Below, piece by piece: positions 2,943 to 64,000 of a stretch of 64,000 nt of DNA (position 1 is the first letter of the stretch; every line of letters starts with the position of its first letter). The DNA is from an uncultured Nitrososphaerales archaeon (lineage in GTDB: Archaea > Thermoproteota > Nitrososphaeria > Nitrososphaerales > Nitrososphaeraceae). The notes beneath the pieces were generated by a model that saw only the letters and a program-made list of their open reading frames with translations, made no database searches and was not told the origin of the DNA. Made by a program: the position numbers and the translations under genes. The DNA lies in contig CAVQMO010000003.1 of NCBI GenBank assembly GCA_963713605.1, positions 414,841 to 478,840 of the forward strand, in the 5' to 3' direction.

Positions 2943-3937
2943 AAATCAAGTTCCACCAACCTAGATGAGACAGGACAAGAATAAGAGGAAGTGAAAAAAC
3001 CAAACAGAAAAGCATGGTGGTCATCCTCATAATTTTGATGGCCAGCATACATTTATCAACTGTCAAGAATTCGGTCCCTTCACCTAAAGCATAGCTACCC
3101 ATTTTCTCAAGTCTCACTCTTAAAGCACCTGCCATAGAACTCATAGGGTATCCGGCATTGATACTGGTTGTCTTGTGATGATCGCGGATGAGCATTGCTA
3201 GAGAATTTCTCCAATCTGCCTGAACCATGTAAGCTGAGACAACCATCAGAAGACCAGTTATACGAGCGGGTAAGAAATTGAATATAGTATCTAGCTTGGC
3301 TGACATCCAACCTATATCTTTGTAGTATAGATCCTTGTATCCAAGCATGGAGTCTAGTGTATTGACTACTCTAAAAGCTATGCAACCTACTGGACCGAGA
3401 ATTGAATAAAAGAACAAAGGAGATATGATTCCATCGACAGTGCTTTCGCTAATGCATTCGATAGTCGCAGATTGGATATATTCTTCATTCAGGCTACTAG
3501 TATCCCTCCTGACTATCATTGACAAATGGTATCTCAGCTTCATCCAATTTGCCTGCCTCTATTGAACCGATGATCTGGATAGCAGATTTCTCCATTCCTT
3601 TCAATGCTATTGATATCTTTAACAAGACTGCAAACAGAATCAGGGTAATCAGTATTCCCATGTAAAGAGCAGTTAACGAAGCCACGGCAATTGTCAGCAA
3701 TGCTATGCCAAAAATAAGGCTACATGAAAACAAGATTCCTTTTACCTTTTCAATTTTATCCTGTGAAATGGAACTTACTATTACCTCACTATGTTTCAAA
3801 TTCGGAGTTATGGATTCGATTAGGTTTCCGAGCCATGAAACTGGATGGTACCTATTCGGGGGGTCTCCAAACAACAAGTCTAGGAGCATCCCAAGACCTA
3901 AGCCACCCCCCAGAAGAACAAACAGCTCATAAATCAT
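2932..3937 (-). CDS. cbiB: Adenosylcobinamide-phosphate synthase CbiB/CobD, frameshift near 3540
   Basis: GDPPNRYHPVSWLG in the 5' ORF; ESTVDGIISPLFF, VNTLDSMLGY, NFLPAR, SINAGYPM in the 3' ORF. Confidence 0.92.
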
Positions 3938-24533: not shown

Positions 24534-25818
24534 ATGGAGGTTGCTGAAGGAACTAAGTTTCGAGAGTTGAGTTTGACTGACAGACTAGATCTACTTAAGA
24601 AGAATGCTTCTCTTGAGGACAGGGACATCCAATTTCTCAAGGATTCAGCGCACAGTTTGGGTTTTGATAATGTGAATAGAATGATAGAAAATGCCATTGG
24701 AGTATTTCCCGTTCCAATGGGAATTGCGACAAACTTTTTGATTAATGACATGGACTATCTCATCCCTATGGCGATAGAAGAGCCATCTGTGATTGCCGCT
24801 ACAAGTAAAGCGAGCAAAAATAGCCAAACTCACTGGCGGATTTCACGCTGAACCAGATGATTCCCTAATGATTGGTCAAATTCAAGTGATTCCATATGGT
24901 AAGCCTCATGAGGCAATTTCAAGAGAGATTCTTGAGAAAAAAGATGAATTATTTAGGATTGCCACTTCCATGGCTAGATCGTCAAAAGTAGTAGAAATAG
25001 AACTCCGAACCGTCCAAGACGAGAGCCAGCTAGGCATGGGCACCATGATCATCGTTGAACTCATAATCAACACTCGTGATGCGATGGGTGCCAACGTAGT
25101 GAATACGATTTGCGAGGCGGTCGGACAAGCCATTGAAAGTATTACTGGTGGCAGGACGATATTGAAGATCCTTTCGAACTATTCGGTGCGAAGACTAGTT
25201 AGATGCAGTGCCACTTTCCCGAAAAATCAAATTGGTGGAGATATCATGGTGGAACGAATCCTATATGCGTATGCACTTGCTTATTCAGATGTCTACAGAG
25301 CTGTTACCCACAACAAAGGTATCATGAATGGCATTGATGCCGTAGCACTGGCGACCGGGCAGGACTTCCGTGCTATTGAGGCTGCGGCGCACGCTTATGC
25401 TAGTAGAGGAGGTCGTTACAGGTCATTGTCAAAGTGGTATAGGGATGAAAATGGTGATCTTGTTGGCGAATTGGAAATGCCTATGGCTGTAGGGACTGTG
25501 GGTGGAGTGACGAAGGTACATCAGATGGCTGCGACGAGCTTAAAGATTCTAAAGGTTAATTCTTCCCAAGAACTTGCGATTGTGATCGCATCTGTGGGTC
25601 TAGCCCAGAATTTTGCAGCACTACTTGCATTGGCTTCTGAAGGGATTCAGAAGGGGCACATGAAACTACATTCAAGAAATATTGCTTTTATGGCGGGTGC
25701 AAGAGGTGATATGATAGACATCATATCAGAGCACCTTGTCAAGGAAGAGAAAGTAAATCTATCTAGAGCAAAGGAATTGATGGTTAAGTTCGGCCAAAAT
25801 GGTCAAATCAATGATTAG
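24534..25818 (+). CDS. hmgA: Hydroxymethylglutaryl-CoA reductase (class II type), frameshift near 24810
   Basis: ENAIG, PMAIEEPSVIAA, DAMGAN, ILSN, THNKGIMNGI, GQDFRAIEA, GIQKGHMKLH. Confidence 0.93.
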
Positions 25819-29679: not shown

Positions 29680-30976
29680 TTGTTGAGAATTGTTGATGTA
29701 AAAAATGTGCAGTCAGATGTTGCAAGATTTAGGAAGTCACGTGTAACCTTATCAGATAGTATTATAAAAAAAACAAGCGATATCATAGCGTCAGTAGTAA
29801 AGTCTGGGGATCGCGCACTCCTTAAGTATACTCAAGAGTTCGAAGGCGTTGAACTGAAAACTCTTAGAGTGTCTGAAGACGAAATTAGCTCTGCGTTCAA
29901 AAAGGTCACCTCTTTGCAGTTGAAATCGATACATGCAATGCGAAAGAGATTGATTAAATTCGAATCAAATCTGTTTGATCATGTGAGTGGCATTGAATCA
30001 CGGTTTGACCGACTGAAAATATCAAGACTACTTAGACCTATAGAAAATGTTGGTTGCTATGTACCAGGAGGAAAAGCTAGATACCCTAGTACCTTGCTAA
30101 TGTGCTGCACTCCAGCAAATGTTGCTGGAGTCAAGAGATTAGTTGTGATCACTCCGCCTCAAAAGGATGGAACTATTGATCCTCTGACCCTGGTGGCTGC
30201 TGATATCTGCAAAGTACAGGAAGTTTATAAGCTTGGAGGAGCTCAGGGAATAGCCGCACTCAGCCTTCGGAACAGAAAGCATTAGGAAAGTTGACAAGAT
30301 TGTGGGACCTGGCGGTATTTTTGTAACCGCTGCCAAAAATATGGTTTCCGACAGGGTTGCAACCGATATGGTCGCTGGTCCTACAGAATTGTTGGTATTT
30401 GCTGATTCAAAATCACATCCCCGACTCGCGGCCCTTGATTTGATCTCTCAATCTGAGCACAGTAACGACACACTCTGTGGTATGGTTACGACATCGAGAC
30501 GTATGGCGATGCGAGTTAACGAAGAAATTAATATGCTGATCAGAAGCAAAGTGGGTGTCTTAAGACGCGATATAATTACGCAAAGTCTTAATGAGAATGG
30601 TTTTATTGCAATATGCAAACGAAAATCTGAAGCTATCGATTTCATAAATGAATTCGCGCCCGAGCATTTAGAGGTAATGACTGTTAACGCGGGTTCGGTA
30701 GTTAAAAAAATAAGATCTGCAGGCCTCATTCTTATAGGAAAGTACACTCCATCGGCAGCTAGTGACTATTGTCTCGGTTCAAATCATGTGTTACCTACCC
30801 TGGGATTTGCTAAGTCGCGAGCTGCTTTATCTGTCCTGGACTTTTTAAAGATGATAAGTTGCATTGAACTAAACGGAAATGGTTTAAAAAAGATTGAATC
30901 TTGTGTCAAGGAAATCACGACTGCAGAGGGATTATTTAATCATTACAAAGCGGTAGAAGGAAGGTTTTTGAAATGA
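29680..30976 (+). CDS. hisD: Histidinol dehydrogenase, frameshift near 30262
   Basis: YVPGGKA.YPST, GGAQGIAAL, KIVGPG, DMVAGPTE, SQSEH, APEHL, DYCLGSNHVLPT. Confidence 0.96.
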
Positions 30977-51891: not shown

Positions 51892-54160
51892 GTGTATACT
51901 CTTTCCCTCCCTTTCCCGCCAGAAGAAGAATTACTGAGCATAAAAGAATCGAAAATTGGAAAAGTTGAACCAGTAAACTATATCCGCAATCATTCAGAAT
52001 TTTGGACTGAAGAAAGACTCAAAAAAGAAGCCCATAGATTTAAAAACGTAGCAACTACTCTTGGAAAAACACGTCTCGAAGCAGAAGATGGCACTCCATT
52101 ATATCTCAATGTTCTTGATATAGATAGTAAACCAATCTTTACAATATTGAGCATAGTAAGTGACAAATATGGAAAAGATTGCTTTTTTCTAGACAAAACT
52201 TGCAAGTCGACTTTTGTGACCTGGACTAAAAAGAGATATGGACGACATATTTTTTGGTTATCTAAAAAGCAGTATGAGCCGATCATTACCAGTGAATGTA
52301 AACCTGGACACAAATTTGAAATCAAGACTAACTTTGGTTTAGTAGCTCTTCCAGAAAGTAGACATAGAGACAATCCTAATTTTCACTATCAAAAGATTGG
52401 CATAGACAAGATTCGAAAGAAATGGACAAATGTACGATTTCTTAATGGAAACTCTCAAAGATTGCTTAAAACCTAAGCGTGATAAAAAAACAAACTATTA
52501 TACAGAAGAGAGTACAAGTTGGTCAAGAATCAAACTAAATGATGAACAGATACATTCATTATATCAGTTGTTATATCCATGTTACACAACGGGCTATAGA
52601 GATGAAATAATATATGGTTTGTCTGGGTTATTGCACAAGCATCACATAGCGATCGAGTCATCTATGTCACTAGTACAAAAACTGTCTATCAATGATGAAG
52701 AAAGAGATAGCCGGATATCAATTTTGCATTCTACATATCAGAAGAATCCAAAAGAAGTCAGTGGATACCAATATCTTCTCTCAGTTTTGGAAAATGTGGT
52801 AGAAGGCGGTCTAGCCTCCGCAAAAAACATTCTAAGAAAAATTGTAAACATAATTTCTGTTAGAGACACTGATCAAGACATAATTACTAGTCTCACTGAA
52901 CAAGTCATGACCGAATATTCTCTTAAAACAATGAGAGATAATGAAGAATTGTACTATTATGATACTGGTCTGGGATTATATCTAAGGCTTGGTGATTCAA
53001 TCATTAAAGAATATTTAGAGATTTTATATCCAAAGATCAAGACACATATGGTTAACGAGATTATTCAAAAAATCAAACGAAGAACATATGTAGATAGGGA
53101 ACAATTCGATAATAATATTGACATAATAAATGTTCAGAATGGACTACTAAATATCTGGACTGGCGAACTTAGAGATCATTCACCAGACTTTTTGAGTATT
53201 GTTCAATTACCACTAAAATACAACCCGAGGAGTAGATGTCCAAATATTGGAAGATATCTGAGACAAGTATTACATCCAGAAGATGTACCTACAGCTTTGG
53301 AAGTAATTGGGTACACTTTATACCGAACTGCAATATACGAAAAAGCTGTCATGTTGCATGGAAACGGGGATAATGGCAAGGGCGTATTTATCAAAGTGTT
53401 AGAAGCATTTGTCGGTTGGCAAAACTGTAGTCATGTACCGTTACAAGATCTGGATAATGACAAATTCTCAACGGCTGATTTGCATGGAAAATTAGTAAAT
53501 ACTTTCGCTGATCTTAAATTTCAAAAATTAATGGCGACCGGCAACTTCAAGACTCTAGTGTCAGGTGATTCAGTCCGAGCTCAAGAAAAATATGGTAAAC
53601 CATTCAGCTTTAGAAATTACGCCATACTCATCTTCAGTACAAACAAAATTCCCGATTCGGATGATAAGAGTTATGCATACTACAAGAGATGGCTAATCTT
53701 GTCTTTTGAAAAAGTTTTTCAAGGGACATCAAAAGATACCGATCTCATAAACAAGTTGACCATACCAGATGAGTTATCTGGACTGCTCAATCTGGCTTTA
53801 ATTTCGCTAAAACAGTTAAAGAAAGATGGCGGATTTAGGGACATTTCAGTTGAGAAAGTGAGAAAAGAATATGAGTACAATTCGAATACAGTTAAAGCAT
53901 TCTTGGATGACAGATGTGTTATAGATTTGACTGCGCCAGATTATATCATATCGACTGTTCATCTGTACAGTGATTACTGGAATTTTTGCCAAGAAAAACG
54001 AGCGAGACCATTAGAGAATAATGTATTCGGTTCTAAACTAAAAGAATATGGCATTGAGAGAGATCGTATGAGAAGCCAGGGAGACAGAGAGTATTATTAC
54101 TTTGGTGTAACGCTTCGAAAAGACTTGCGGGGCCAAAATCAATCTCTTTTTAACAACTAA
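51892..54160 (+). CDS. Prim-Pol (AEP) fused to P4/D5-like SF3 helicase, frameshift near 52420; 5' end possibly truncated
   Basis: NVLDID, TKKRYGRHIF, FEIKT..LVALPESRH (Prim-Pol); INVQNGLLN...LRDHSPD (D5_N); HGNGDNGKG Walker A, FADL, FSTN, YYKRW; C-terminal wHTH-like LYSDY.NFC. Confidence 0.9.
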
Positions 54161-55282: not shown

Positions 55283-55519
55283 CTAAAAACATTTCAGCAA
55301 GAATTTGCAGTTTTCGCATGTGTACGCCAACTTATCGAAGCTCGAGCACAATTCCATAATGCCATAACAACGCGGGCATTCTGTCTCCATGTCAAGTTCA
55401 GACACCGCCGGCTCTTCTTTTTGCTCCGGTAAATTGGATTCTTCTAATGCTTCAAGAGCATGATTTCTTTCCGGTTCCGTTTTTGGAGGGACTAGTTTAG
55501 CATGGCTTTGTCTGGACAT
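55283..55519 (-). CDS. Small Zn-ribbon protein
   Basis: ECPRCYGIM...YTCENC. Confidence 0.65.
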   Translation of the reverse strand: MSRQSHAKLVPPKTEPERNHALEALEESNLPEQKEEPAVSELDMETECPRCYGIMELCSSFDKLAYTCENCKFLLKCF

Positions 55520-55873
55520 ATCTTACTCTTATCAAAAATGACTATTATATGAGTGTGACTTGTAAGTGGGGGAGAGAGGTGTACATGTATATTTTCCAAT
55601 ATTTTAAGTTTCATACACGTAGTCATTTCTTTGGCTCAATTGCATGGTATTCAAACATGTGTAAGATTGTATCATAAATGATTGTTTCTTCGCCGATTCC
55701 ATAAATAGTGCAATTACAGTCAAGTCCGACATCTTGGCAGCGAACACAAAAATTGTTGTATACAATTTTCATATGCTTGGGACATTTGATTAATGCAGTA
55801 AAATTTGTTATATTTACAGTGTGATGTATTGTACTAGCAACTACGATCTAAGAAATCTAAGTGTGATTGATAC

Positions 55874-55964
55874 TAATAAAATAGCGCCAGTAACTAGTTG
55901 ATTGTCAAATACTCGCTATACTTACCCCGCTCCCGGGGTCTACAAGTTACTGCTAATTTTATTA
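55874..55964. promoter_or_regulatory. Long imperfect inverted repeat with internal GC hairpin upstream of the radA-polB2 operon
   Basis: TAATAAAATAGCGCCAGTAACTAGTTGA versus the reverse complement of TCTACAAGTTACTGCTAATTTTATTA; internal ACCCCG-CTCC-CGGGGT. Confidence 0.45.
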
Positions 55965-56007
55965 ACAAAGAGTCAAGAATAGTTTAACATATACTGTCGT
56001 GATGCAC

Positions 56008-57029
56008 ATGACTAGCCGTCTGAAAGAAGTTGATATGGAAGAGATCCCAGATATCACTAGCGATTTGATTAATAAGTAAAAAAATTGAATATTAACTCGG
56101 TTTATCAGTTAGCAGTCCAGAATCCGGCCGAACTTGCATTAGAGTTTGAAGATACGTCGCTTAGCGCCAAGTCAGCTTCTACACTCATCGCAAATGCCAG
56201 AAAAATTCTTATTGATAACAATGTATGTCCGAAGAGTTTCTAACTGCAGATGATTTGTTAGAAAAGCGGAACAAACTATCTAGATATGCAACTGGTTCTG
56301 AAGACTTCGATAACTTACTAAATGGGGGTTTTGAAACCCAAGCGATCACTGAGCTGGTGGGGGAATTTTCGTCCGGAAAATCTCAAGTCTGTCACACGTT
56401 ATGTGTTTCCGCAAGCAAACTTATCGAAAATAACCCGGACGGTGACGCGGGGAACATAATTTTCATAGATTCGGAGAATACTTTCAGAGCTAATAGAATA
56501 CATCAAATTGTGAGCAACGGGGACTTGACCCATTACCCATTCTAGAAAAGATCTTTCATTGTCAAGTCTATAGTAGCGAACATCTAGAGTCAATCATAGA
56601 TGATTTGGATAAATCAATTGAGCAGTACAATGCCAAGATTGTGATAATAGACAGCATAATAAGTCTTCATAGAGCCGAGTTCTCTGGACGCGGAACACTA
56701 GCAGAACGACAGCAAAGACTTGGAAAGATGCTAAACAAGTCAGACGATATGCTGATATTTACAACATAGCGGTTGTGATAACCAACCAAGTAGTGTCGTA
56801 CCCCGACGGCACGCATCCGGGATTTGATTCCATGAAAGCGGCTGGTGGGAACATAGTAGCTCATGGCTCTACATATCGAATATTTCTCAGAAAATCTGGC
56901 AAGAACAGAGTGGCTACAATGGAAGACTCACCCTGCCAACCATATCAACGAGTGAAATTCTCAATCTCAGAAAGCGGAATCCAAGATGCTAGTTCTTATA
57001 AAACAGAAGAGAGTGATTCGGGTTGGTAG
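56008..57029 (+). CDS. radA: RadA/Rad51-family recombinase paralog; about 4 frameshifts, possibly a pseudogene
   Basis: N-terminal HhH-like region, F.TA polymerisation-like motif, TGS..FD.LL.GGFETQAITELVGEFSSGKSQ, FIDSENTF, IVIIDS, HRAEFSGRGTLAERQQ, ITNQV, GGNIVAH, EDSP. Confidence 0.85.
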
Positions 57030-58865
57030 AATCTTTACATTATAGTAAGTATGATGAGAATGCCCGTAATTCTAGTTCTCAAATACTTAGTAATTTATAT
57101 CCAGATCCAAAATCTCTTCCAACTCCACCGGCTTTACGTGAGCCGATTCCATCTGTTACATTATCTGAGCTCGAAGCTGGAAAATATACTTCAATAACGG
57201 TGAGAATTGCATATATCAGAACTACCGAAAAGCCAGATGCTCTTGGAGAGAAAATTGTCTTTACCGGCGTGCTTGAAGATTCTACATCTAAAGTATCATT
57301 TGTTAGCCATAAGATTGCGTATCCACTCATTCGGGATTCAGCTTATAGAATTCATTCAGCGTACGTTCATGAATTTCCAGACCGATCTTTATTAGTAGTG
57401 ATAACAGAATTCACTAAACTAGAGCCAAAGAATGTGGAAGATATCCGTGACTTTACATGGATTCCAAAGATCGGGGCTATCAATAGACCAGTTAGACATA
57501 TCTTTTTGAATGGAACTATTTCAACTATACATAGCACGTCTGGTCTAATCAAGCGCTGAAACAAATGTAGATCACTGATTCTGTACGACGCTAATAAGTG
57601 TCCCAATGAGTGTGGTATGGGCTATGCGTGGGATCTTCGGATATCAAGCAAGTTGTATGATGGGTCGGGCGCAATCAAAATGGTCTTGACCAAAGATTTT
57701 GCTGCTAAAGTGTTACAGCGAAACTTGAGCCAACTCATCTTAAATGCTTCATTGAATCAGAATAGTCAACAAGAACAAACTCAATCGAATAATAATTCTA
57801 TCTCAACTCTCACTATAGAAATTCCATCTTCATTTGACGTAGAAGAAGCAGTTCTTCCCGATTCTGTCTCGCCATCACTCTATACAAGATCTGATAAGTT
57901 AATTGTATCTAACGGCCCAAATCTGGTCTATTTCTCAGTAAATGATACTGACTTGAAAGCTAAATTTGCAGAACTGAATGTTAGACATCTCGATGCCAAT
58001 GGAGTGAATCTATGGAAGATACTAAAATTATCAGAAGATTGGTTGAGCGCGCGATTTCAATGAGCGTTCAAGATACTACAGAAAAGCGGATGAGACATGG
58101 AATATATCTACTTGAAGATCCAATTTCACTTTACAGATGCGAAAGAGCCAAGCTATATTTGGGATTTTCTGTGGATGTCAGAATCAATACACAACAACAA
58201 TACCGACACAAGCTGCAACTGACCATAGAACTAAGTCCACATGCTTACGTTCGGGAAACCGTACTCGACTACATTAGAATGCGAAGAGAAGCTGGTGCTA
58301 CCGCAAACGCGGTCATTCGCATGCTACTAAACTATCGAAGTAAAGTAATTGTAATCCGACTGGGCATTATGGTAGTATAGTTGACGTAATTTCTAGAAAA
58401 GCGAGCCAGCAAATAGTATCTGAACTAGATAATCGAAACTTGGTCGAATTTTGGAAGCAAGTTTATGACATCGAGATCTCACCCGATGAGATACCACTTC
58501 TAAATATTAAGATGTTGAACTCTGAGAACACTTTTACTTACCCTGCTAGCGTCTGTTACTTCGGCCAAGAATCATTGTATATTCCGGCTTCAGTTCAGAA
58601 ATTCATTGAATACAAACAGTCAAGGCTTATTCCAAGAATGTATGATGTTGTTAAAAAAGCGGTTAAAGATCTGAAGATTGGAGATGACATAGAAATTCAT
58701 CCGATCAGTGACGTGTATCGGGTGAATAACAGAGAAAATATGCGGCGACAAATACTTGAAGAAACTAGAAAGAAGCTTTACGGTAGAAATATTCATGCGC
58801 GTGGTTCAGTCATGTACGTCCATGATGAGCTGTGGTTTTTTCCGAATCAGCTTCATATTTCTTAG
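57023..58865 (+). CDS. RPA-like two-OB-fold/Zn-ribbon protein with an inserted Argonaute N-L1-PAZ(-L2)-like region; about 610 aa after repair
   Basis: OB1 (GVLEDST.KV.F...YRIHSAYVHEF); OB2 SGLIKR*NKC..CPNEC..WDLRI..KLYDGSG; L1-like KLYLGFSVDV...ETVLDYI; PAZ-like NLVEFWKQVYDIEISPDEIPLL...FTYPASVC; OB2 tail EETRKKLYGRNIHARG. In-frame TGA at 57557; frameshifts near 58005 and 58353. Confidence 0.7.
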
Positions 58866-58872
58866 TGATAAA

Positions 58873-59739
58873 ATGTCACAATCAGCCAACTCATCCCAGG
58901 TCTATTTCTCCGCAATGAAATGTGCTCTCGATCTGTTAGACCAGCAAAATACCTTACAAAAAGATGTCTACCGGATCGGCAGAGATTGATTCGCTGGTAG
59001 ACGGGGTCCAACAGGGTTCATTTTACTTATTCTATAGTAGTCACGAAAATCACTATTCTCGACTCTCTATTATATCGGCAATTAATCGGGTGCGTATTGC
59101 CAAAAAGCAAGAAGAAGAATGGCTTTGAGTCTATTGCAATGCTTTGCAATAATATCGACTTCTCTATAAATAGAAACAAGCATCAATTATTAAATCCAGA
59201 AAAGATTGCAATTACATCAAAATACGCAGGGATAGAGCCGAAAATTGTGTTCAAGAATTTGTATGTTCATACTGCATATAACGTAGAACATCAAGTAACA
59301 ATTGCAGAAGAAATTGCTAGCAAGATAGAATCAAATCCGGACATTAAACTTCTTGCAATAAGAGATCTAACCAAGTTTCTTGCCAGAGATACAAATGCAA
59401 GTGATGATGCTAATACACTAAAGAAGACTCTGGGAACAGTTTACAGAGCGTGCACTAAAAATAAAGTTGCCATTGTCGCAACGGGAGAATGTAATGTTGC
59501 TAATAATGGATTTATTCCCAAACCGGCCGGGGGAATGTATCTAAAACATACGGCAAATATTATCGTGCATATTAAACCAAATTTCTGGTCTACAACCAAC
59601 AATAGTACCTGTAAGTCCATCTGTCTCATTCAAAGCATCTATGATTAAGCATCAGTATCAGAAAACTCCCAAAGCAGTTAACTTTTACGCCAGAAGAATC
59701 GGTAAGCGAATGAACCCAATGCTATACATATTGGATTGA
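58873..59739 (+). CDS. Inactivated RadA-like protein of the PolB2 operon (several frameshifts)
   Basis: MSTGSAEIDSLVDGVQQG, then FYLFYSSHEN in place of Walker A; CVLPKSKKKNG, NLYVHTAYNVEHQ, LLAIRDL, PKPAGGMYLKH, MIKH. Confidence 0.7.
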
Positions 59740-59745
59740 ATTTTC

Positions 59746-60110
59746 ATGGGGAGAATAACACCAAGTTTTAGACAGCTTTACGAAGAAACAATTGCCGAAC
59801 TAAAATCCGAACTTCAATCGGCCATGGTTGATCTGGGTCATAAAAGCGCATTTGATTCATTACTAAAAGACGCGTGGAGTCGCGAACAAGTCGCTATGGG
59901 TAACTCCACTCTGCCGACTGTTTGCGATAAATTAAATCTGATCGCTTCAATTCATAATAGAAAGATTACTGCCCATTGGCTAGAGAGTTGAAAGACAAAG
60001 ATTCAAAGATAAATCAGTTTTCAGGCAGAATAGGTGAACTCGAAAATACCGTAAAGATCATTATGGATAAGTTAAAAACTGAACCAAATGATCTTGACAT
60101 ACCAACATAG
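59746..60110 (+). CDS. arCOG07300-like small helical protein (PolB2-associated), frameshift near 59972
   Basis: Diagnostic MGRITPSFR start, AFDSL, coiled-coil tail; directly precedes the polymerase. Confidence 0.75.
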
Positions 60111-60116
60111 CAAGAA

Positions 60117-62281
60117 ATGGTTATTCAAACTGCAGACGGCTGGATTCTAGATGTTATACAAGACTCTGCTACTAGCGATATTAATGTACTCATTAAATTA
60201 CAAGATAGTAATCTAATCAGTTTCAAGCAAAAACTCAAAGATTATACATTATATATACAGCCAAAAACTACTTCAGCTGGAGAAGATCTCTTTCAGCAAC
60301 TATCAAGAAATGACGAAATAATCAAGAAACTATTTTGGGATGAAAAGTATATTGATCTTACTGACAGGAACAAGACACAATTAATAGGAATAGTGCTAGA
60401 AAATATCCAATCACAAGACTATCAAAAGTTCATCAAGAAATTGGCGACAGATTCTAGAGTTACGTTCTTTGTTTAATACGGAATTGTCTGTCATTCATCA
60501 ATTTATTTACAATCAACTAAGAATTGCGCCTATAAGCAAGGTTAGAATTGATTACGATGAAAAAGAGTTGATAACTATTTCGAAAGTAGACGATAGTCAA
60601 GAGATAGCCATGCCCCCGTTCAAGATCATGCATGTTAGGATCGGGGATGACAATAAAAATGACGAAATAACATTCAAAGTTAGACTCGAGAATGGAACAT
60701 CAGACGTATATAATGAATTGTCCTATGAGAACTTTATTTCGTGTATCAAAGAAAATAAGTCAAACATTGCAATCATATACGAAGATTACCAATATGATTA
60801 TGACATTGCTAACTCAATAGATAATATAATTACCGAACACTGTAATCAAACCGTAGTCATACATAGCCGTGACACGGTTGAAGATGTTTCTCCTGTTGAA
60901 TTAGTTGAGAAAGCGCGATTCAGTTATCTACCTATAAAGCATGCTTCGAAGTATGGCATGTTAAGACTTATCGATAGTAGAATTACATACGAATTACTTC
61001 AGAGAGATTTTGTTGTCCCAAAGCGGCAGTCAATATCTAAGCATCACGAACAAATCAGGACGCTAAATGATATTATAGAAATGGATAAAGGCTGGAATGA
61101 TTATATCTCCTGAGATTGGTTTGCATGAGAATGTAGCGGTCTTGGATTTTAACGATGAATATGCAAACATAATTACAGGACATAATATTAGCTACGAGAA
61201 TCTATCTCATGATGGCTTTACAATAGATGACCAAACATCTTTACTTCCATTAATTGTACAAGAACTTGTCGAAAGACGTGTTTACATGAAACAATTTCTA
61301 AAGACCCAACAAGCAGACAGTATTCTTTACTCTAACTGTGAAGCCCGCTTAGATATACTAAAGCAAATACTTGTTTGTCTATATGGCACGTCCGGATCGA
61401 TATGGAATAGATACAGTAATGTGCGAGTCTTTGAAGAGATAAATAGACATGCAAGACTGATATTACTAAAGACGAAAGATATCGTGCAGAAAGCTGGTTT
61501 TGAGCTGATCTATGCAGACACTGATGCAGTTTTTCTTAAGAAAAAAGACGCAACAAGAAAAGAGTATGAAGAGATTATGAATGAACTTGTAAGCGCGACT
61601 GGTCTCCAAATGACTTTAGATTTTCATTACAAATTCTTAGTGTTACTATACATAGAGGCAGACGAAAAGATGGAAGCTCGTAAGCACTATTATGGACTCA
61701 CATACGAAAACCGACTAATTACTCGGGGCATCGACACGCGCAGACATGATTCCCCTATGTTCATAAAAGAATTTCAAAGAACTTTACTCACACAGTTATT
61801 TAATTGTAATAGTTCCGAAGAAGTTCAAACAGTGGGCTATGAGCATGCTCTCATGTATATCACTGAAAGCATTGATAAATTAATGGATGGTAACGTCCAA
61901 ATAACAGATTTAGTTATCTCCAAGTTACTACGACAGAATATCGAGAAGTACAGAAGTTTATTTCCCCATGTTTCAGCAGCTATTAGATTGAATGTATCCG
62001 GAGTCACTACTAACCGCGGGGACAATATTCAATACATCCACACAGACTCGAATCATACAGACCCGCTCCAACGAATAACACCCGCCAGACTAATCTCTTC
62101 TGAAAATTATGATAAGGAGAAATATGTTGAAATGCTACTCGACTCAGCGGAAGCCGTGCTATCTATATTCGAATTTAGTCGGTCATTATTTGGGTTTGAC
62201 AGAAAGAAAGCGTACCATTGGTGGGACGAGATATATCAACAACGCGAGCGAGATATTGAGTCGGCAAAAACAGAATTATGA
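60117..62281 (+). CDS. polB2: Family B DNA polymerase, PolB2 type; frameshifts near 60470 and 61090
   Basis: GWILD N-terminus, DKG/GMIISPEIGLHENVAVLDFNDEYANII..HNISYE, K.ILVCLYG..G, YADTDAVF, K.YYG, RGIDTRRHD, YDKEKY; no exonuclease motifs recognised. Confidence 0.88.
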
Positions 62282-62778
62282 AATTGGAGTCTATAGATGA
62301 GTCTATTTCCAGATGTTTTTGTGTGTCAATAAAACTTGGCCAAGAACATTATGATTTTCAATAAACTGTCTCGGCAGCAATAGCGAGCAAGCTCGGACAA
62401 AGTTTGTAATATGATTAAAATAAACAATCAGTCAGTCCGTCTAGTCAACTGACTAGGATGATTTTTATCTATAAACTTCTATTTGTCCATTACTAACTGA
62501 CTAACATCTGGATCCTCACTTTTACGAGTCGCAAATTATATTAAACTATATTAGACTGGTAATTTTCGAGAGTGGGCAGCCGAGTCTCATAGGCGGTTTT
62601 GCAAAGTCAAGCAAATGATCCATATTTCCTTATCCTTGTCACGCATATTTTTTGAATGATGTTTGAACCACTTCTCAAACAATCCATCAATAAGTCGACG
62701 AGTTCATTTGAATAAAATTCAATCAACAAAATATGTGAGCAAGTTCAAATATTTACATGTGCTAGCATGGTCTATATA

Positions 62779-63431: not shown

Positions 63432-64000
63432 TTAGCAATTAGAGACTACGTCTAAATTCGAATCTACAATGTGAACCTGAGTCGTATTAACGGTAAAATT
63501 AGCAGTCTTCACACTGTTACAATCAAATAAAGAATCATCAAGATCTGCAAGATGTAGAGATGCGTTAGTGAGATACGAACCTCGTAAATCTGCTTGTGTC
63601 AGATCGGCATGGCGGAGGCTTGCATTTGTAAGATTAGCGTGACCAATAATTGCACGGTTTAGATTAGCATTTGATAGATCAGCGTTTGCCAGGTTGGCGA
63701 AATCAATAATAGCACGGTTTAGATTAGCATTTGATAGATCAGCATCTTTTACTGACATTTGATAGATCAGCATCTGTCAAATCGGCATAACTTAAGTCGA
63801 CATCCGTCAGATTGGCATAACGGAGATCCGCATCCAACAAGTCGGCATCAAGTAGGTATGCATCAGTAAGATCAGCGTACCGGAAATCGGCATCAGTAAG
63901 ATCAGCGTACCGGAAATCGGCATCAGTTAGATTAGCACCGATAAAAAGTGAATTAGTTACATCGGCATTCGCAAATAAAGCATCTTTTAAGTTAGCATCG
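63432..64000 (-). CDS. Pentapeptide repeat protein, partial at the window edge and frameshifted
   Basis: A(D/N)Lxx repeats (ADLSNANLNRAII, ADLTDADFRY); exact 30-nt DNA tandem at about 63860-63927. Confidence 0.85.

Follow-up and report, generated by a model that had tools for sequence, protein, structure and literature searches.

A predicted RPA with an internal Argonaute lobe and a second RadA encoded upstream of PolB2 mutasome genes in uncultured archaea

The DNA polymerase PolB2, an inactivated RadA-like protein (iRadA) and a trimer of the PPB2 protein (arCOG07300) have been proposed, as a result of published modelling, to form a pentameric mutasome for the extension of primer ends that are poorly paired, and a parallel between this complex and Pol V was drawn (PMC11791011; PMC4104785). 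In that work PolB2 gave good models with iRadA, whereas with active RadA it did not (score 0.28; PMC11791011). Here we describe an operon that comprises genes of this kind in a 64,000-nucleotide stretch of DNA (the window) of an uncultured Nitrososphaerales archaeon. The window corresponds to positions 414841-478840 of contig C3 (CAVQMO010000003.1) in the source genome, G000 (GenBank assembly GCA_963713605.1; 4.1 Mb, 15 contigs, 87% complete), and lies at the end of this contig, which stops 1.7 kb past polB2. Five co-oriented genes occupy positions 56008-62281 of the window in the order radA, RPA-Argonaute fusion gene, iRadA gene, PPB2 gene and polB2, and their junctions are as described in an earlier note made from this sequence: the TTG at 57023 overlaps with the TAG at 57029, while the stop codons at 58865 (TAG), 59739 (TGA) and 60110 (TAG) are followed by ATG codons at 58873, 59746 and 60117, respectively. 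The gene identities and order proposed in that note are borne out by family matches (Rad51 for genes 1 and 3, DNA_pol_B for gene 5 and, weakly, PAZ for gene 2), by motifs and by fold, although the assembled sequence interrupts every one of the five reading frames (11 net frameshifts and one stop).

The iRadA-PPB2-PolB2 core of the operon is the published PolB2 mutasome, here in its branch with an intact DTD motif. It shares with the described representatives the order of the three genes, the MGRT-type arm of PPB2, the DK motif and the decayed exonuclease domain of PolB2, and the presence of a second PPB2 gene without the arm, but differs from them by two extra upstream genes. Escherichia coli Pol V (UmuD'2C-RecA) and ImuABC similarly combine a proofreading-free polymerase with a recombinase-family subunit, whereas the operon described here encodes a polymerase of the B family, an active recombinase of its own beside the inactive one, and its own single-stranded DNA-binding protein (SSB). 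A close Nitrososphaeraceae ortholog (MPZ08282.1, with the DTD motif) is listed in the supplement of PMC11791011. A term search of the main text of that paper for RPA, SSB, PAZ, Argonaute and the phrase "active RadA" gave no mention, and the cells for RPA, SSB, PAZ or Argonaute neighbours are blank in the supplement rows covered (26 of 53 DTD rows). No paper on the fusion protein was found by title or abstract in a literature search, the coverage of which excludes subscription journals. So far as we could find, neither an active RadA of a second lineage that precedes iRadA, whether the fusion is present or not, nor a euryarchaeal-type RPA with an Argonaute lobe inside its zinc-finger OB fold is in print.

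The product of the second gene is, according to its predicted structure, a zinc-finger RPA of euryarchaeal type that carries an Argonaute N-L1-PAZ-L2 lobe. The structure was modelled for the ortholog of locus L018, the residue numbers of which are used throughout (57-row alignment, mean predicted local distance difference test score 82.6), and a structure search with this model retrieved both RPA chains and Argonaute/PIWI chains. The lobe (residues 262-567) aligns with residues 227-559 of MILI (Z 15.2, 278 residues aligned, root-mean-square deviation (rmsd) 4.3), and its PAZ domain (412-519) with that of Hiwi (Z 12.0, 102 aligned, rmsd 2.5). Residues 186-339 of Pyrococcus Rpa1 align with residues 147-615 of the model across the insert (Z 13.0, 142 aligned). 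Since this alignment brackets the lobe, the Argonaute part is inserted inside the second, zinc-finger OB fold; both parts of the fusion proposed in the earlier note are present, but the Argonaute part is not appended to the RPA. All 615 residues can be assigned to the N-terminal tail, the two OB folds and the lobe.

The RPA part is supported also by sequence. Residues 47-238 match the euryarchaeal RPA profiles PRK07218 and PRK06386 with E-values of ~1e-17 to 4e-17 (below the whole-protein cut-offs), OB-1 matches the OB fold of Ta0387 (E 1e-5), and the zinc-finger residues C180 and C183 are present in 15 of 15 rows that have a residue there. An uninterrupted RPA of the parent type can be recognized in haloarchaea: a haloarchaeal RPA matches profile positions 26-229 (E 8e-31), and a segment that, as judged by eye, is like the last 45 residues of the fusion follows directly after the matched part. 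The fusion resembles Pyrococcus Rpa1 (OB-1 and OB-4) in its combination of OB-1 with a zinc-finger OB fold (Z 13-14 to Rpa1) and differs in that the latter fold is split by the 305-residue lobe. Rpa1 has additionally a trimerisation helix, which seems to be absent from the fusion, as the match stops at residue 339 of the ~357 in Rpa1. Presumably, the parent protein was similar to RPA3 of Haloferax, mutants of which are damage-sensitive (PMC7776575). As judged from its fold, the fusion protein would bind single-stranded DNA through its OB folds. A thermophile-type version of 531 amino acids (aa) is encoded by locus L081, and mesophile versions by L065 and L018.

In the lobe, the N, L1, PAZ and L2 parts follow each other in the Argonaute order. 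The Pfam PAZ profile matches 27 of the 57 alignment members (E<=0.1), and the helix motif of the PAZ pocket aligns, weakly, with that of Piwi PAZ (E 0.4). This pocket helix is conserved (W479 in 16 of 16 rows, F/Y478 in 15 of 16), as is a basic RRxxGA helix of the lobe. In contrast to Argonaute and PIWI proteins, the lobe lies inside an OB fold, its genomic context is that of repair and not of defence, and MID and PIWI domains are absent from both the model and the sequence of the fusion, which consequently should have neither a pocket for a guide 5' end nor a slicer. PAZ anchors 3' ends and the N-domain is a proposed unwinding element; an N-terminal OB fold has been described in eight cases of long prokaryotic Argonautes (pAgos) (PMC6299218). 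The combination observed here suggests the reuse of a gene-silencing module for DNA repair, and it raises the question of what an Argonaute N-PAZ lobe is capable of without MID-PIWI. The DNA-binding domain of BRCA2 offers an analogy, since it consists of tandem OB folds, the second of which bears a large nucleic-acid-binding insert, and acts beside a Rad51-family recombinase. Its insert, however, is unrelated, and no FxxA motif was seen in the N-terminal tail of the fusion.

Some of the similarities found are more distant. The nearest look-alikes of the lobe in a language-model comparison (residues 258-570 of protein P0001) include eukaryotic DUF4708/C18orf63 clusters, with scores of 0.90-0.93, while the DUF4708 profile (PF15813) has no match in the 57 alignment members or in five genomes; a literature search found no paper naming DUF4708. 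A fold search of viral models with the fusion gave weak matches only (best E 6e-5), baculovirus LEF-3 among them. In the 798-aa protein P0037 most of RadA is joined in frame to the fusion, and in locus L023 (6-1879) a radA fragment runs into the fusion gene; both joins are probably internal deletions.

The first gene of the operon encodes, as judged from its sequence, an active-type RadA of a second, non-housekeeping lineage, in agreement with the dedicated, Walker A-intact paralog postulated earlier; in the window the Walker A motif reads GEFSSGKS. The helix-hairpin-helix (HhH) N-domain, FxxA motif, Walker A and B motifs and catalytic Glu are present in 8 of 9 rows of operon RadAs, with the L774-type DAE counted as Glu and the N-terminus of the L081 row cut off by the contig. 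Intact orthologs exceed the NCBIfam cut-off for RadA (PRK04301; 320 bits vs. 259). The single radA products of three complete genomes are 57-67% identical to the RadA encoded on contig C1 of G000 and only 39-44% identical to the operon type. In the tree of the own class, 13 operon RadAs and four solo copies form one group apart from the housekeeping type (support 89/82). Placement of all 16 operon radA genes in a single clade was rejected (approximately unbiased test, p-AU 1e-52), but the test is confounded, as the solo copies nest inside the group. Each of five fusion-free genomes that were checked has another radA elsewhere, while in G076 (68% complete) the operon copy is the only one. Three near-identical blocks of radA with a zinc-ribbon gene are present in G000 (C2:85.7-87.7 kb, C12:385-387 kb and C13:7.1-9.1 kb) and may reflect a recent duplication or a mixing of strains in the bin.

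The remaining products are those expected of a PolB2 mutasome. The iRadA protein matches Rad51 (E 1e-9) but is devoid of GxxxxGK(S/T) and of the N-domain, and the MGRIT arm of PPB2 is found in the window and in its relatives. In PolB2, the DTD motif is intact, the loop motif DK/DR is present in all six full-length rows, and no DxE motif is visible by eye at ExoI of these rows, which is consistent with the proofreading-less polymerase assumed before. All five genes are under purifying selection.

The complete gene order occurs twice in G000 and recurs in loci L018, L019, L024, L025 and L065, where all five frames are open, and in L081, which is open save for the 5' end of radA, cut by the contig. 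Four of these loci are from the same genus, and the others represent another order and another class (Thermoprotei-like, as judged from the source label and taxa); the identity of the fusion across five-gene loci falls to 29% (P0151). The iRadA gene follows the fusion gene in 17 of 17 loci that hold the 3' end of the latter, which three remnants lack; of the 19 loci in which the upstream DNA is readable, 17 have radA ahead of the fusion gene. These counts omit one duplicate. Most of the loci belong to one genus, and the number of independent lineages is about five. Genome surveys detected the fusion gene in 8 of 41 relatives (G000 being one of the eight, and 7 of 13 other genomes of the genus the rest), in 8 of 401 genomes of the class, 2 of 401 of the phylum and 3 of 120 of another class, 15 distinct genomes in total. 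In the three other genera of the family for which most genomes are available, it was found in 0/15, 0/24 and 0/8 genomes, and a Nitrososphaera or Nitrosocosmicus strain suitable for the experiments proposed earlier may therefore not exist. Protein searches with the fusion yielded 842 matches and 301 representatives, with source labels that include Nitrososphaerota, Bathyarchaeota, Thermoprotei and one Methylomirabilota, possibly mis-binned; UCH37541.1 is an example of the Bathyarchaeia homologs; a second homolog search gave close relatives only among its best 120 matches.

The synteny anticipated in the earlier note is thus real, but the set of five genes is variable. In 9 of 16 related PolB2 loci, a radA with intact Walker A lies directly before the iRadA gene without the fusion, which gives the four-gene form radA-iRadA-PPB2-polB2 (L152-L156, L158 and L160-L162, with orc1/cdc6 nearby four times). 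Two PolB2 proteins of four-gene loci read AVD in place of DxD. A joint gain or loss of radA and the fusion gene is rejected by this comparison, and the fusion is an optional accessory, radA being a commoner one. In many Nitrososphaeria the PolB2 operon therefore includes a second RadA of active type, which the published neighbourhood survey does not list. On a 35-row PolB2 tree the presence of the fusion needs four changes, of which at least three are forced, and its slot is always between radA and the iRadA gene, on both sides of the deepest split. The simplest reading is an old five-gene form with repeated loss; alternatively, the fusion may have been transferred repeatedly.

Features of the window locus and linked genes (positions in the window)
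Feature	Position	Strand	Characteristics
radA paralog	56008..57029	+	HhH N-domain, FxTA polymerisation motif, Walker A GEFSSGKS, DSE catalytic Glu, Walker B IIDS
radA 1-nucleotide deletions in assembly	after 56076, 56224, 56510, 56739	+	
RPA with inserted Argonaute N-lobe	57023..58865	+	~613 aa if read like relatives
Fusion breaks in assembly	in-frame TGA at 57557; 1-nucleotide deletions after 58004, 58355	+	
Fusion OB-1	57149..57464 (approximate)	+	ortholog residues ~44-149; Z 14.5 to Sulfolobus SSB 1o7i (104 aligned, rmsd 2.3)
Zinc-finger OB, first half	57461..57752	+	residues ~147-245, CxxC...C..C
Argonaute N-L1-PAZ-L2 lobe	57803..58716	+	residues ~262-567; PAZ ~58252-58572
Zinc-finger OB, closing helix and last two strands	58725..58862	+	residues ~570-615
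iRadA, inactivated RadA without N-domain or Walker A	58873..59739	+	indels 58958, 59052, 59609 (two combine)
PPB2 (arCOG07300), MGRIT N-terminal arm	59746..60110	+	1-nucleotide deletion at 59973
PolB2, YADTD motif intact, DK loop motif, exonuclease domain decayed	60117..62281	+	1-nucleotide insertions 60460, 61090
Six-codon remnant (MSLFPD) of second PPB2-like gene	62297..62332	+	remainder missing; relatives carry the gene after polB2
78-aa zinc-ribbon gene, divergent from radA	55283..55519	-	linked; no Pfam match; L024 ortholog no NCBIfam match
Prim-Pol gene overlapping SF3/D5-like helicase gene	51892-54160	+	mobile-element replication pair

We interpret the five genes, with a modest balance of probability in favour, as a DNA-damage operon linking recombination with error-prone synthesis, in which the fusion would keep a 3' end available to RadA for pairing and to the polymerase for extension without proofreading. 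According to this model, which builds on sequence comparison and predicted structures, the fusion would coat single-stranded DNA through its two OB folds, while its PAZ pocket would hold a free 3' end and its N-domain would wedge at the duplex junction. A stalled primer or a resected end could thereby be capped and presented. The dedicated RadA would polymerise on the adjacent single-stranded DNA and pair the 3' end with a homologous template, and the DTD-intact, proofreading-free PolB2-iRadA-PPB2 complex would then extend the paired end. The parallel to RecA*-Pol V that was drawn in the earlier note has been published for the PolB2 mutasome, but as PolB2 does not model with active RadA (PMC11791011), the role of RecA* would fall to iRadA, and active RadA would have to act upstream. 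The operon may provide a small, purifiable handle on the recruitment of the PolB2 mutasome to primer ends. A bolder proposal, which we regard as possible but doubtful, is that the fusion is an archaeal 3'-end mediator, in which an Argonaute N-PAZ lobe outside RNA silencing captures a broken or stalled DNA 3' end, allows its pairing by the dedicated RadA and hands the end off to the error-prone B-family mutasome, and that the five-gene form is ancestral in the DTD-intact branch. The latter is suggested by the same slot of the fusion on both sides of the deepest split and, if true, would make the three-gene mutasome of Sulfolobus and bacteria a reduced form.

Several points weigh against the damage-operon model. 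It rests on anatomy, motifs, synteny, selection and published data, whereas expression, binding and activity are predicted. Direct binding of PolB2 to active RadA is rejected by published modelling, damage induction has been shown solely for Dpo2 of Sulfolobales, a different branch (PMC11791011), and the preference of PAZ for DNA or RNA is not readable from sequence. The RadA of L018 has Val at the position of the catalytic Glu. The fusion is present in 0/11 and 0/16 related PolB2 loci of other genomes (one of the 11 loci has 0.7 kb of upstream DNA only, and the set of 16 leaves out hit G052), including sisters of L065 with 76-77% PolB2 identity to it. Additionally, the locus is multi-copy in the genus, often as remnants, as a mobile cassette would be, and a primase-helicase pair lies 1.8 kb from it in the window. 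In the window copy itself, the density of breaks (12 in 6.3 kb) is ~2.5 times that of control genes, the TGA at 57557 may be a true stop, and the loss of the second PPB2 gene is real.

As to the window copy, we consider it quite probable that it is intact in the organism and that its breaks are mostly long-read base-calling errors at N4-methylcytosine (m4C) sites; the error pattern points to a long-read assembly. Three observations carry this conclusion. The 12 small indels (four in radA, two in the fusion gene, three in the iRadA gene, of which two combine, one in the PPB2 gene and two in polB2) have AGCT or GTAC in an aligned row at 8 of 12 sites, as compared to a background of 13% (P 3e-5). 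Bigger gaps that compensate each other within variable loops were regarded as noise of the alignment and not counted. Persistent m4C methylases for both motifs are reported in 8 of 8 Nitrososphaerales genomes (PMC10609329). Secondly, contigs of other strains among the matches listed are free of these indels: C is restored at 56076, 56225, 56510, 58004 and 58355 in contigs of four public runs that show the relevant site, and in contig pieces of 98-99% identity the gaps are as numerous as the window indels in their span (e.g., 22 other letters and two gaps in 60306-61651). Thirdly, substitutions private to the window are mainly silent (50 silent and 14 replacement), similarly to those of intact rows (52/19 and 50/17).

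Methylation-linked errors are probably spread throughout the G000 assembly. Among control genes taken from two relatives (81 open reading frames (ORFs) queried, 47 matched, the others being below the coverage or identity filter), 20 of 47 are broken in G000, with 31 breaks in 13,578 aa. The housekeeping genes cobD, asd, hmgA and hisD of the window are each split in two (3500-3543, 6720, 24793-24848 and 30282-30302), and G000 is slightly poorer in AGCT and GTAC than its relatives are (0.92 vs. 1.04 and 0.92 vs. 0.98). Two approaches were abandoned, namely an indel count by DNA alignment of control genes (72-90% identity), which was too noisy (72 indels), and a first motif-at-indel test with free base choice, which was too loose to be meaningful. 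That this one copy is a real, recently decayed pseudogene cluster seems to us rather unlikely. All five of its genes are broken, its density of breaks is above that of control genes, its second PPB2 gene is deleted, a copy on contig C10 is without PPB2-polB2, and relatives hold remnants (L011, L013 and L071), but the coincidence of indels with Nitrososphaerales m4C motifs, their absence from close contigs, the mostly silent private changes and the equally split housekeeping genes speak for errors. The window copy is nevertheless a poor template, and loci L065, L081 and L018 are better objects of study. More generally, AGCT and GTAC sites may give rise to false pseudogenes in long-read genomes of Nitrososphaerales.

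The most serious alternative to the damage-operon model, although an unlikely one in our estimate, is a translesion operon in which radA and the fusion gene are co-regulated passengers that act apart from the mutasome, the lobe contributing only an affinity for duplexes or junctions and handing off no 3' end. The absence of the fusion at 27 of 27 other related loci fetched, the occurrence of solo copies of operon-type radA without the other genes and the published lack of a PolB2 model with active RadA (PMC11791011) all fit such passengers, but a whole fusion gene was never seen outside its slot (the iRadA gene is next in 17 of 17 cases), and P0037 joins RadA to the fusion in frame, though maybe by deletion.

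Distinctly less probable is that the recombinase, the SSB and the DTD-intact polymerase form a cassette with which a mobile element copies itself by recombination-dependent replication, and which does not serve host repair. Phage T4 provides an analogy, as its recombination-dependent replication employs a recombinase, an SSB and a polymerase. Apart from the window copy, G000 has two further copies of the locus, both broken, on C3 (order complete) and C10, as well as many fragments. The Prim-Pol and SF3 helicase genes lie near the window locus, and a helicase homolog is present at C3:247321-248349, ~12 kb from the second operon copy. The spread of the fusion is patchy (8 of 401 class genomes), and a PolB-iRadA operon is reported on an integrated element of Nitrososphaera (PMC6563490). 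However, L065 sits among housekeeping genes, no integrase or transposase was detected among 94 ORFs scanned (49 of the window and 45 of related loci) and no tRNA in the window, and searches of phages, plasmids and viral contigs gave no match over the full length, where the viral scan detects close relatives only. The lack of proofreading in the polymerase also speaks against this role. A guide- or RNA-linked system, in which the lobe would grip a small RNA or DNA by its 3' end, or partner a distant MID-PIWI protein, and steer RadA pairing and mutagenic synthesis toward matching DNA, could explain why the entire N-L1-PAZ-L2 lobe with its basic RRxxGA helix is kept, and not PAZ alone, and why its best structural matches are PIWI-clade proteins, but it is highly improbable given the lack of a MID domain for a guide 5' end, of a Piwi match in 5 of 5 genomes searched (2 of 14 controls were detected, and divergent short pAgos could escape) and of a PADLOC match for three proteins.

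The neighbours of related loci fit the damage role postulated for the operon. The orc1/cdc6 gene lies beside L077, L082 and 4 of 16 fusion-free loci, and DUF72 is encoded near L081; both neighbours have been tied to the damage response (PMC11791011). In L081 (5437-8551), polB2 is followed by a helix-turn-helix gene, a gene of metallo-beta-lactamase fold and, 1 kb on, the DUF72 gene.

The zinc-ribbon gene upstream of radA has ~17 matches in G000 and is divergent from 7 of 7 radA copies of the operon lineage, and not from the housekeeping radA; its product is a possible regulator. Two TTAACA-like boxes, ~20 bases apart (window ~55960-55992), precede radA directly and are kept in 7 of 8 aligned promoters, which makes them a candidate site of a regulator or promoter. 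Between the zinc-ribbon gene and radA there is a small Cys-rich ORF on the minus strand, broken in the window (~55600-55830), open in L018 (2263-2514) and found in 4 of 8 aligned promoters. At the contig end, a pentapeptide-repeat gene lies in two frames on the minus strand (window 63432-64000).

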